DNA of 64,000 bases from Escherichia coli (GTDB lineage Bacteria; Pseudomonadota; Gammaproteobacteria; Enterobacterales; Enterobacteriaceae): the NCBI RefSeq assembly GCF_013122565.1, contig NZ_CP053258.1. One strand, 5' to 3'. The notes below the pieces were generated by a model, which had not been told where the DNA came from, made no database searches, and saw nothing but the letters and a program-made list of their open reading frames with translations. The translations under genes were made by a program, and so were the position numbers. Positions 54,787 through 56,640 of this stretch are shown here, piece by piece (the stretch's first letter is position 1; each line of letters begins with the position of its first letter).

Positions 54787-56640
54787 ATGAAAATGACTTT
54801 GCCGTTTAAACCCCATGTGCTGGCGCTAATTTGCAGTGCCGGGCTTTGTGCCGCCTCTACCGGGCTATATATAAAAAGCCGCACAGTGGAAGCGCCTGTG
54901 GAACCGCAATCGACACAACTGGCTGTGTCTGACGCTGCCGCGGTTACGCTTCCTGCAACGGTTTCCGCACCTCCCGTAACACCCGCCGTCGTTAAATCCG
55001 CATTCAGCACTGCACAAATAGATCAATGGGTCGCGCCCGTCGCGCTATACCCCGACTCTCTGCTTTCACAAGTGTTAATGGCATCAACCTATCCGGCAAA
55101 CGTTGCTCAAGCAGTGCAATGGTCGCACGATAACCCACTTAAACAAGGCGATGCTGCTATTCAGGCGGTATCTGACCAGCCGTGGGACGCTAGCGTCAAA
55201 TCACTGGTGGCCTTTCCACAATTGATGGCGTTGATGGGCGAAAACCCGCAATGGGTGCAAAACCTGGGCGATGCTTTTCTGGCGCAGCCGCAGGACGTGA
55301 TGGACTCGGTACAGCGATTGCGGCAACTGGCGCAACAAACCGGCTCGCTGAAGTCATCAACCGAACAGAAAGTTATTACCACAACGAAGAAAGCTGTACC
55401 GGTAAAACAGACAGTCACGGCACCCGTCATACCATCCAATACCGTTTTAACTGCCAACCCCGTCATTACAGAGCCGGCAACAACCGTCATTTCCATTGAG
55501 CCCGCCAATCCTGATGTGGTCTATATTCCCAACTACAACCCAACCGTGGTTTACGGGAACTGGGCCAATACTGCGTATCCGCCGGTTTATCTGCCACCAC
55601 CAGCCGGAGAACCGTTTGTTGACAGCTTTGTGCGCGGATTCGGCTATAGCATGGGCGTTGCTACCACGTACGCACTATTCAGCAGCATCGACTGGGACGA
55701 CGACGATCATGACCATCATCATCATGACGATGATGATTATCATCACCACGATGGCGGTCATCGTGACGGTAATGGCTGGCAACACAACGGCGACAACATC
55801 AATATCGACGTCAACAATTTCAACCGTATCACCGGTGAGCATCTTACTGATAAGAATATGGCATGGCGGCACAATCCAAACTACCGTAATGGTGTGCCCT
55901 ATCATGATCAGGATATGGCAAAGCGGTTTCATCAAACCGATGTCAACGGCGGAATGAGTGCCACGCAGCTACCTGCTCCAACACGCGACAGCCAGCGTCA
56001 GGCGGCAGCAAGTCAGTTTCAGCAACGAACACACGCCGCCCCCGTCATTACACGAGATACCCAACGTCAGGCAGCGGCACAGCGGTTTAATGAAGCTGAA
56101 CACTATGGGAGCTATGACGACTTCCGCGACTTCAGCCGTCGCCAACCACTGATCCAGCAACAAAAGGACGCCGCTCGTCAGCGTTATCAGTCAGCTTCTC
56201 CTGAGCAGCGCCAGGCAGTTCGCGAGAGAATGCAGACTAACCCGCAGATCCAGCAGCGAAGAGAGGCAGCGCGTGAGCGCATTCAGTCCGCCTCGCCTGA
56301 GCAGCGCCAGGCAGTCCGCGAGAAAATGCAGACTAACCCACAGATCCAGCAGCGAAGAGACGCAGCGCGTGAGCGTATTCAGTCAGCCTCGCCTGAGCAG
56401 CGCCAGGTGTTTAAGGAAAAAGTACAGCAGCGCCCACTGAACCAACAGCAACGTGATAACGCCCGCCAGCGTGTTCAATCAGCATCACCTGAACAACGTC
56501 AGGTTTTTCGGGAGAAAGTTCAGGAGAGCCGCCCACAACGTCTAAACGACAGTAACCATACTGCCAGGCTGAATAACGAGCAACGGTCAGCAGTACGCGA
56601 ACGTCTCTCTGAGCGCGGAGCAAGGCGACTGGAAAGGTAA
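54787..56640 (+). CDS. yacH: Uncharacterized secreted protein YacH
   Basis: 617-aa ORF with signal peptide, a His/Asp-rich tract and C-terminal tandem Q/R-rich repeats; recognised as YacH. Confidence 0.88.
   Translation: MKMTLPFKPHVLALICSAGLCAASTGLYIKSRTVEAPVEPQSTQLAVSDAAAVTLPATVSAPPVTPAVVKSAFSTAQIDQWVAPVALYPDSLLSQVLMASTYPANVAQAVQWSHDNPLKQGDAAIQAVSDQPWDASVKSLVAFPQLMALMGENPQWVQNLGDAFLAQPQDVMDSVQRLRQLAQQTGSLKSSTEQKVITTTKKAVPVKQTVTAPVIPSNTVLTANPVITEPATTVISIEPANPDVVYIPNYNPTVVYGNWANTAYPPVYLPPPAGEPFVDSFVRGFGYSMGVATTYALFSSIDWDDDDHDHHHHDDDDYHHHDGGHRDGNGWQHNGDNINIDVNNFNRITGEHLTDKNMAWRHNPNYRNGVPYHDQDMAKRFHQTDVNGGMSATQLPAPTRDSQRQAAASQFQQRTHAAPVITRDTQRQAAAQRFNEAEHYGSYDDFRDFSRRQPLIQQQKDAARQRYQSASPEQRQAVRERMQTNPQIQQRREAARERIQSASPEQRQAVREKMQTNPQIQQRRDAARERIQSASPEQRQVFKEKVQQRPLNQQQRDNARQRVQSASPEQRQVFREKVQESRPQRLNDSNHTARLNNEQRSAVRERLSERGARRLER
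56167..56550 (+). repeat. Intragenic 96-bp (32-codon) tandem repeats in yacH
   Basis: Four consecutive units (AARERIQSASPEQRQAVREKMQTNPQIQQRRD-like); units 2 and 3 are nearly identical at the nucleotide level. Confidence 0.8.

Follow-up and report, generated by a model that had tools for sequence, protein, structure and literature searches.

The Escherichia coli gene yacH encodes a dense cluster of histidine and aspartate residues, and the question raised by this locus is whether the cluster is a metal-binding loop of an exported protein, a charged patch, or a low-complexity insertion produced by slippage on its own codons. The gene lies in a 64,000-nucleotide stretch of DNA, the whole of which is referred to here as the window. 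The name yacH, already given in a preliminary description of the window, agrees with the annotation ('DUF3300 domain-containing protein'), which was matched in 5425 of 5426 complete E. coli genomes. The gene and its larger features are the following.

54787..56640, + strand: yacH coding sequence from the open reading frame (ORF) list, 617 aa plus stop, encoding a DUF3300 protein
55009..55785, + strand: match to Pfam DUF3300, residues 75-333, which includes the His/Asp tract at its C-terminal end
56146..56407, + strand: tandem repeat of 96 bp in 2.7 copies (Tandem Repeats Finder), coding for Q/R-rich units of 32 aa (SASPEQRQAVRE...) within the basic C-terminal part

Membership of the DUF3300 family is given by the Pfam profile PF11737, which matches residues 75-333 of YacH with E = 1.3e-78 and 264.1 bits against a cut-off of 25. 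At E <= 1 nothing besides DUF3300 was found in Pfam, and hence the SPEQRQ repeats have no LTXXQ/Spy/CpxP match; zero matches were obtained for the protein in NCBIfam, nothing was found for either strand of the gene in Rfam, and a promoter and terminator scan returned nothing informative. To our knowledge, DUF3300, which comprises more than 9500 clusters at 50% identity, has neither a characterised member nor a solved structure. According to the ORF list of the window, yacH is monocistronic and sits between acnB and lpd, the latter being downstream and convergent. Gene lengths of 1758 bp and 1854 bp occur in E. coli, the 32-aa repeat is present in 3-5 copies among E. coli YacH proteins, and the gene is disrupted in some isolates.

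The tract itself and the loop in which it lies are placed as follows.

55690..55776, + strand: His/Asp tract DWDDDDHDHHHHDDDDYHHHDGGHRDGNG, residues 302-330 of the ORF translation
55696..55794, + strand: full expanded loop of 33 aa, residues 304-336, from just after the near-invariant W303 up to the NINIDV strand
55714..55737, + strand: homocodon runs (CAT)4 then GAC (GAT)3 in the codon listing, the main sites of length polymorphism

The His/Asp cluster that had been described is present in the translated ORF as a tract of 29 residues, among which are 12 Asp and 9 His. Its start had been placed exactly, at 55690, where D302 begins; the end had been set at 55770, which is 6 nt, or two codons, short of the end of G330 at 55776. 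The loop as a whole holds 12 Asp and 10 His among 33 residues and terminates in HNGD, resembling the 4-residue turn HGGD of the family. Since 25 of its 33 codons are of the NAY type (GAY, CAY, TAY, AAY) and the remainder are mostly GGN, the tract DNA is rich in gat and cat, as had been described. By binomial calculation, 9 or more His among 29 residues would occur with a probability of ~1e-8 (background 2.3%) and 21 or more D/H with one of ~6e-18, and a six-frame scan of the whole window found at least 12 D/H per 29 residues nowhere else. Tandem Repeats Finder, run with scores down to 30, did not call the tract, its sole call being the downstream 96-bp repeat; the tract DNA is cryptically simple and not a clean microsatellite. 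Two other ORFs run over the tract, one on the opposite strand (55675..55935, - strand) and one in the +2 frame (55496..55957, + strand), and both were rejected as genes, each being an I/M/T/V-rich string that is a by-product of the NAY runs.

The place of the tract in the protein becomes apparent from the segments on either side of it and from comparison with the family.

55627..55689, + strand: Gly-rich, weakly hydrophobic segment FVRGFGYSMGVATTYALFSSI, residues 281-301, first arm of a hairpin
55795..55824, + strand: residues 337-346, the conserved motif NINIDVNNFN, which forms the other arm of the hairpin; family consensus VxINVNxYN
55864..55908, + strand: conserved WRHNPNYRNGVPYHD motif, residues 360-374; family consensus WxHxPxHRxGVPYRD; pLDDT 94

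At E <= 0.001, 9557 relatives of YacH were found among representatives at 50% identity, and loop lengths were compared in 111 sampled DUF3300 representatives. The loop after the near-invariant Trp is exactly 4 aa long in 90 of these, most commonly HGGD, RGGD or GGGD, as against 33 aa in YacH, and a distant clade of the family has a 4-aa loop in 97 of 101 members. In Enterobacterales, the loop comprises 16-37 residues, nearly all of them D, H, Y or N (the residues of NAY codons) plus Gly, and rare His/Asp expansions occur in unrelated lineages (P0127, P0171, P0204 and P0340). The AlphaFold2 (AF2) model of YacH contains a helical domain at residues 70-190 (pLDDT >95) and a beta region at residues 194-260 (pLDDT 93-95), with hairpin strands at residues 299-301 and 338-341; the tract between these strands is modelled as disordered, pLDDT being below 50 at residues 310-313 and 317-331. 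In the AF2 model of the relative P0143, a strand at residues 240-243 is followed by a 4-residue turn and a strand at 248-251, with pLDDT 94. As modelled, the tract is a lineage-specific, enterobacterial expansion of a beta-hairpin turn, variable in length and predicted to be intrinsically disordered. It is missing from most sampled DUF3300 proteins, and the family's core function therefore does not depend on it. The short, ancestral loops of the DUF3300 representatives are already 20% His and sit near the conserved WxHxPxHR motif, both points being in favour of metal chemistry; H362 is kept in 90% of the representatives, His occupies position 366 in 67%, and C301 is found in relatives as well.

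The side of the membrane on which this loop lies can be judged from the N-terminus and from the segment ahead of the tract.

54787..54873, + strand: predicted export signal or signal anchor at the N-terminus, residues 1-29, with a hydrophobic core at residues 11-29

Residues 11-29 of YacH form a 19-residue hydrophobic stretch with a Kyte-Doolittle (KD) hydropathy of 1.91, and AF2 places a helix at residues 9-22, so that the N-terminus fits either a signal peptide or a signal anchor. Among 113 DUF3300 members compared in this region, 103 have an N-terminal hydrophobic core, often followed by AxA, and about five relatives carry lipobox (lipoprotein-type) signals. Ahead of the tract, the maximum 19-residue KD hydropathy in YacH is 0.78, with no segment of transmembrane (TM) grade, and AF2 models the Gly-rich segment as short beta strands, not as a helix. 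Taking into account the signal-like N-termini of the family, the hydropathy and the modelled strands, an exported location is the likelier topology and the tract is probably periplasmic, as the preliminary description had suggested. It would instead be cytoplasmic if the Gly-rich segment were a TM helix, which would make YacH a type I bitopic protein, with the tract as a juxtamembrane His-rich loop akin to those of RcnA or the CDF/ZIP transporters. Such a helix would accord with a KD hydropathy of at least 1.6 for the segment in 44 of 111 relatives (family median 1.51), with a median net charge of +18 C-terminal of the Trp in relatives, matching the positive-inside rule, and with older annotations reading 'putative membrane protein'. 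In YacH, however, the segment reaches just 0.78 and is followed by 12 Asp, a poor stop-transfer signal; AF2 gives the strands of a confident hairpin both in YacH and in a hydrophobic relative, and the lipoprotein-type signals of some relatives would be unusual alongside a TM helix. On the hydropathy and the two AF2 models, a TM helix ahead of the tract in YacH was rejected, and it is retained as a minor and very improbable rival.

Divalent-metal binding by the His/Asp loop is chemically plausible in view of its composition. Runs such as HHHH and HHH with carboxylates on either side are ligands for Ni, Zn, Cu and Co, and the tract shares with His-rich metal loops and tails a close packing of His and acidic residues, here within a segment modelled as disordered (pLDDT <50). 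The reading preferred here, to which about an even chance is given, is that YacH is an exported DUF3300 protein whose tract is a disordered, periplasmic expansion of a hairpin turn and a putative loop for binding divalent transition metals. The loop would be a periplasmic surface feature of the beta module, and its ~10 His and 12 Asp would provide a multi-site, low-specificity site for Zn, Ni, Cu or Co, much as His-rich loops and tails do in proteins known to handle metals. Its role may be that of a local sink for metal, or of a switch by which metal would control the envelope role of YacH. In the literature searched, no paper ties yacH to zinc, nickel, copper or histidine-rich binding, what is on record for the gene being regulation by CpxR and Rob and phenotypes with cationic peptides, and no link to metal homeostasis (Zur, NikR, RcnR, CueR, Cus, or a transporter or maturation operon) was found in the gene context or in that literature; most of the literature matches for yacH are to an author's surname.

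Among characterised systems, the closest likenesses are to ZnuA and to several His-rich loops and tails. ZnuA of E. coli and Salmonella is a periplasmic zinc-binding protein with a disordered surface loop of His and acidic residues; this loop, of species-variable length, takes up Zn(II) alongside the structured site. YacH is similar in its His/acidic loop of variable length, modelled as disordered, and in its probable periplasmic location. ZnuA, however, is a Zur-regulated component of an ABC importer and binds metal at a defined high-affinity site, whereas YacH has no homology to ZnuA and no known structured metal site or transporter partner, and its recorded regulators are CpxR and Rob only. 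The C-terminal tail of SlyD, the His-rich parts of HypB, the loop at the centre of RcnA and Hpn of H. pylori are clusters of His, mixed with Asp, Glu or Cys, of low sequence complexity; they take up several Ni, Zn or Co ions, show modest specificity and differ widely in length between species. The YacH tract resembles them as a low-complexity His cluster with acidic residues and variable length. These proteins are located in the cytoplasm or exposed to it, and genetics ties them to the maturation of hydrogenase or urease or to efflux; YacH, in contrast, is probably exported, has no hydrogenase, urease or efflux link, and carries its cluster as an internal expansion of a hairpin turn rather than as a tail. 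The likeness to characterised His-rich loops and tails is one of composition and not of homology: the tract has zero matches to PDB sequences at E <= 10, and the DUF3300 family profile gives weak matches only, with E ~0.02-0.04, to an unrelated protein. Within these bounds, the tract is plausibly an ordinary, further His-rich loop of a known type, encoded by a gene whose function is uncharacterised.

The same tract might be a functionally neutral low-complexity insertion, made and kept variable by slippage on the NAY runs and tolerated because it is located in a surface turn. Its four dominant residues share NAY codons and are one first-position change apart, and 22 tract alleles, spanning 18-39 aa, with His runs of 3-6 and Asp runs of 3-4, occur among E. 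coli proteins. In the alignment of E. coli tract DNA, changes of -3, -6, +6 (a CATGAC duplication) and +24 nt are seen, all length changes being duplications or deletions of CAT, GAT and CATGAC units, and the (CAT)4 and (GAT)3 runs are still growing and shrinking by whole codons or short units, as replication slippage predicts. Every length variant seen in E. coli is a multiple of 3 nt and in frame, so the on/off frame switching of a phase-variable contingency locus is not seen in the tract. Two frameshifted database proteins, P0123 and P0149, were considered as cases of out-of-frame slippage in the tract and rejected, the frame shifting upstream near residue 257 in P0123 and ahead of the tract in P0149; the sole frameshift reported within the tract is one 8-bp deletion in one Salmonella isolate. 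A neutral origin would also fit the absence of the tract from most sampled DUF3300 members, the occurrence of similar, rare expansions in other lineages, the near loss of His in Buttiauxella agrestis and the dispensability of yacH. Between genera, the pattern is a different one. The expectation that the tract be conserved among orthologs held within Enterobacterales, where it was present in every ortholog examined (in Escherichia, Salmonella, Klebsiella, Raoultella and Kluyvera, and also in Enterobacter, Buttiauxella, Scandinavium and Rahnella), and failed for most sampled members of the wider family, with their 4-residue loop, and for length inside E. coli. A 14-residue core, DDDDHHHHDDDYHH, is identical in K. 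pneumoniae and S. arizonae, its codons differing at 9 synonymous and 0 non-synonymous positions, which shows selection on the amino acids themselves; upstream, 43 well-conserved codons differ in the same species pair by 20 synonymous and 4 non-synonymous changes. With the order D4-H4-D3-Y-H2 constant and the synonymous sites diverged, the Klebsiella and Salmonella core bears the signature of purifying selection on the amino acids of the tract. The core moreover uses mixed CAT/CAC and GAT/GAC codons, which are unfavourable to slippage, and the order D-H-D-Y-H is maintained in at least five genera, all of which makes a neutral insertion unlikely. Loop His counts range from 1 to 11, falling to 1-3 in Buttiauxella and Enterobacter sp. 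ENT03, and any requirement for His is therefore not strict.

Rather than a metal site, the tract might be an electrostatic, pH-titratable acidic patch, judged about as unlikely as the neutral insertion. Such a patch would dock on the very basic C-terminal part of YacH itself or attract polycations, cationic antimicrobial peptides among them, with protonation of His at low pH weakening the interaction. The calculated net charge of residues 302-334 is -10.4 at pH 7 and -3.1 at pH 5.5, and that of residues 401-617, the C-terminal region, is +18. Responses to cationic peptides point the same way: in protamine, a yacH deletion strain has been reported to survive better than the wild type and yacH mRNA to decrease, a cathelicidin fragment raises yacH mRNA, and cecropin A is reported to lower yacH transcription, according to a report as cited within the protamine study. 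The protamine phenotype, however, belongs to the deletion of YacH as a whole, in which the share of the tract is putative, and Asp or Glu would suffice for charge, yet His is kept residue by residue between Klebsiella and Salmonella. An acidic patch and metal binding are compatible with each other. The two would be joined in a metal- or proton-responsive periplasmic switch on a Cpx-regulated envelope protein, a rather remote prospect, in which occupancy by Zn, Cu or Ni, or protonation of His, would alter the contact between the acidic loop and the C-terminal region and thereby the susceptibility to cationic peptides.

YacH is an uncharacterised 'y-ome' protein of E. coli, and the tract offers a cheap experimental handle, since the protein is expected to be retained on IMAC resin. 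Were the preferred reading of a periplasmic metal-binding loop correct, one more low-affinity buffer or sensor would be added to enterobacterial metal handling, and the protamine phenotype of the yacH deletion might be partly explained. A metal-responsive switch would constitute the first function for DUF3300, linking metal status to envelope defence. If the loop bound no metal, the tract would still be a hairpin turn grown by codon slippage and later held by selection, and either outcome would be incremental.

With other DUF3300 proteins of Proteobacteria, YacH shares a signal-like N-terminus, the Gly-rich segment, the Trp, and the VNINVN and WxHxPxHR motifs. It differs from them in its loop, of 33 residues against a typical turn of 4, and in its surroundings: other DUF3300 genes typically precede a DUF2950 gene, whereas yacH precedes the convergent lpd and has no DUF2950 neighbour. 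A DUF2950 gene follows the DUF3300 gene at two of the loci compared (L012 and L013), and in rhizobia its co-localisation downstream of DUF3300 has been reported as universal (PMC4653623); this is a feature of gene context and not a criterion of domain membership. Other DUF3300 proteins also end in Arg/Gly-rich tails where YacH has its Q/R-rich 32-aa repeats. In many relatives, the segment preceding the Trp is TM-like and the C-terminal part strongly basic.

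Of 5426 complete E. coli genomes, 5425 match the 617-codon open reading frame at 54787..56640 (+), and in them it carries the annotation yacH, 'DUF3300 domain-containing protein'. Its translation includes DWDDDDHDHHHHDDDDYHHHDGGHRDGNG (residues 302-330), with 12 Asp and 9 His within 29 residues, and the preliminary description was correct in placing a dense His/Asp cluster in YacH. The span assigned to it, 55690-55770, has an exact start (D302 from nt 55690) and an end that falls two codons short, with G330 extending to nt 55776. The DNA is gat/cat-rich, as had been proposed: the tract abounds in cat, gat and gac, and NAY codons (Asp GAY, His CAY, Tyr TAY, Asn AAY) account for 25 of the 33 in the loop between W303 and the next motif (residues 304-336), the remainder being mostly GGN. 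Assuming a typical His frequency of 2.3%, at least nine His in 29 residues would arise by chance with a probability of ~1e-8, while the value for at least 21 Asp or His is ~6e-18. Scanning the 64-kb window in all six frames revealed no second locus with at least 12 Asp/His per 29 residues. Two ORFs over the tract, 55496..55957 (+, other frame) and 55675..55935 (-), were rejected as spurious; their I/M/T/V-rich strings arise because the NAY codon runs are read in other frames. In the frameshifted database proteins P0123 and P0149, the tract is read in this I/M/T/V-rich frame.

YacH is a clear member of DUF3300: its one strong Pfam match (PF11737, 264 bits) spans residues 75-333, so that the domain model takes in the tract at its C-terminal end. 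A search of YacH against NCBIfam gave no match. The family comprises 9557 clusters (50% identity) at E <= 0.001, and no characterised member was found in literature mentioning DUF3300; the tract is useful chiefly as a convenient entry point for experiments on this widespread, uncharacterised family. YacH is atypical on three counts, namely its expanded turn, the absence of a DUF2950 partner gene and a Q/R-rich repeat tail. A DUF2950 gene lies directly 3' of the DUF3300 gene in a Bordetella MAG (locus L012, 5437-6339) and in Bradyrhizobium (locus L013, 5470-6426), as also reported for rhizobia (PMC4653623), whereas in the E. coli region compared (56640..56711) yacH leads into the convergent lpd. 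With acnB as divergent neighbour (51835..54585, -) and lpd/aceF as convergent neighbours, yacH therefore stands alone.

When YacH is aligned with 112 diverse representatives, a conserved order emerges, in which a Gly-rich hydrophobic segment (GxxFGxGxAxxxALWG) leads to a near-invariant Trp (W303), a short loop, VNINVNxYN and, later, WxHxPxHRxGVPYRD. The loop between Trp and VNINVN has exactly four residues in 90 of 111 representatives; in a distant environmental clade, 97 of 101 members have a four-residue loop, with HGGD, RGGD and GGGD the commonest. In YacH it has 33 residues and ends ...W-Q-HNGD-NINIDV, so that its end still resembles the HGGD turn of the family. An AlphaFold2 (AF2) model of P0143, a typical relative (alignment of 126 sequences), places the four-residue turn between strands 240-243 and 248-251 with a pLDDT of 94. 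The model of YacH (113 sequences, mean pLDDT 74) has hairpin arms at strands 299-301 and 338-341, with pLDDT below 50 for residues 310-313 and 317-331. Taken with the short turn of the relatives, these predicted strands flanking a low-pLDDT tract indicate that the tract is an expanded hairpin turn, modelled as disordered. Within the later motif (55864..55908, residues 360-374), H362 is kept in 90% of representatives and position 366 is His in 67%, with Tyr in E. coli; Cys directly precedes the invariant Trp in 31% of relatives. The WxHxPxHR motif, this Cys and the His-rich four-residue turn could form a candidate conserved metal or catalytic site.

Conservation of the tract holds for every Enterobacterales ortholog examined, and does not extend to the short-looped majority of the family or to tract length within E. 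coli. A D/H tract occupies this site in Escherichia, E. albertii, Salmonella, Klebsiella, Raoultella, Kluyvera, Enterobacter, Buttiauxella, Scandinavium and Rahnella; loops at the genome loci compared have 16-33 residues with 1-11 His, and that of the metagenomic relative P0122 has 37. The tract is missing from the Bordetella and Bradyrhizobium loci, and in a few unrelated lineages (database proteins P0127, P0171, P0204 and P0340) the same turn has expanded independently with His/Asp. Among 120 E. coli protein variants, 22 tract alleles of 18-39 residues were found, with His runs of 3-6, Asp runs of 3-4 and, in one allele, a triplicated DDDDYHH. At the DNA level, the 141-nt tract region is matched in 5413 of 5426 complete genomes (at least 99% identity in 3064), and an evenly spaced sample of 38 full-length matches contained six with length differences (-6, +6 or +24 nt). 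The changes consist of tandem CAT, CATGAC or 24-nt units, demonstrating that the tract grows and shrinks by codon-unit slippage; variability is greatest in the homocodon runs (CAT)4 and (GAT)3, as replication slippage predicts. All of these changes are in frame, which rules out a phase-variable repeat.

A 14-residue core, DDDDHHHHDDDYHH, is identical in K. pneumoniae and S. enterica subsp. arizonae, with nine synonymous and no non-synonymous codon differences. The same pair has 20 synonymous against 4 non-synonymous differences in the well-conserved 43 upstream codons, and nine of each in the 30 downstream codons. The Klebsiella and Salmonella cores use mixed CAT/CAC and GAT/GAC codons, and such mixtures do not favour slippage. 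Judged from these codon differences, the pattern is that left by purifying selection at the amino-acid level rather than by homogenisation of a DNA repeat, and amino-acid selection on the D/H core is thereby demonstrated in Enterobacteriaceae at the sequence level. This pattern counts against the view that the tract is merely a neutral product of slippage, although the E. coli-specific extra units may be neutral. Selection is not absolute, given that the Buttiauxella agrestis loop has a single His and that the E. coli and E. albertii loops differ by five synonymous and three non-synonymous changes.

Concerning compartment, an N-terminal hydrophobic, signal-like sequence occurs in 103 of 113 family members, in many cases with AxA immediately ahead of the domain, and in YacH residues 11-29 form a hydrophobic stretch of 19 residues. 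A minor alternative is that the Gly-rich segment forms a membrane helix, leaving the tract cytoplasmic and juxtamembrane: in relatives, its Kyte-Doolittle hydropathy over 19 residues has a median of 1.51 (at least 1.6 in 44 of 111) and the region C-terminal of the Trp a median net charge of +18. However, the segment in YacH itself peaks at 0.78 and has 12 Asp after it, both AF2 models (YacH and P0143) render it as beta strands, and about five relatives carry lipoprotein-type signals. Together with the signal-like N-termini, these features make a periplasmic tract most likely. Enterobacterial YacH also has a Pro/Ala/Val/Thr-rich linker of ~45 residues (54856..55008, residues 24-74; pLDDT about 50-57) joining the N-terminal hydrophobic stretch to the DUF3300 domain. 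Since many other family members have AxA right at the start of the domain, the linker may mean that YacH is tethered to the inner membrane via an uncleaved anchor.

HHHH and HHH runs flanked by carboxylates are used by IMAC tags and by the His-rich loops of ZnuA, SlyD, RcnA and Hpn. Because of this general coordination chemistry, the loop, probably exposed in the periplasm, would offer several low-specificity sites for divalent transition metals. The earlier suggestion of divalent-metal binding, possibly as periplasmic Ni/Zn/Cu buffering, is thus reasonable by analogy, and the tract is an ordinary, probably metal-binding loop of low complexity. Short ancestral loops already contain 20% His and lie near the conserved WxHxPxHR motif, both counted as weak support for metal binding. 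The likeness to the known loops is in composition and disorder only: no homology to them and no metal regulon was found, and the literature searched gave no experimental or regulatory link between yacH and metals. Alternatively, the loop has a net charge of -10 at pH 7 and -3 at pH 5.5 beside a C-terminal region of +18, and therefore could act electrostatically, titrating with pH, or bind polycations. Data on cationic peptides feed this second reading: yacH mRNA is lowered by protamine, under which a yacH deletion strain outlives the wild type (PMC9600279), lowered by cecropin A (report cited in PMC9600279) and raised by a cathelicidin fragment (PMC6737244). The gene belongs to the CpxR regulon (PMC9600279), and its expression drops strongly in a rob mutant exposed to butanol (PMC7537768).

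yacH is dispensable. Disruption was seen in E. coli E69 (locus L003), where the yacH match is stretched over 2583 nt and the ORF stops at 392 aa, suggesting an insertion; in E. coli A16 (locus L015), where yacH is annotated as frameshifted; and in Salmonella isolate 69M, where an 8-bp deletion, GATCATCA, within the tract truncates the protein (PMC10048834). Other features of the locus are as follows.

54634..54649, yacH upstream: GTAAA-N6-GTTAA element resembling CpxR half-sites
54657..54669, yacH upstream region: perfect 13-bp palindrome GGTGATAATCACC
56146..56407: 96-bp tandem repeat, 2.7 copies, 86% matches
56652..56681, between the yacH and lpd stops: A-run, stem GCGGC, 7-nt loop, stem GCCGC, T-run (by-eye reading)

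The last of these looks like a shared bidirectional terminator of yacH and lpd; it was not listed by a consensus terminator scan. The 96-bp repeat encodes 32-aa Q/R-rich units, SASPEQRQAVRE[RK]MQTNPQIQQRR[ED]AARERIQ, whose motif is reminiscent of the LTxxQ repeats found in Spy/CpxP/ZraP, but no such Pfam match was obtained. Copy number is not fixed in E. coli, whose proteins carry 3, 4 or 5 SPEQR motifs, and yacH measures 1758 bp instead of 1854 bp in many complete genomes.
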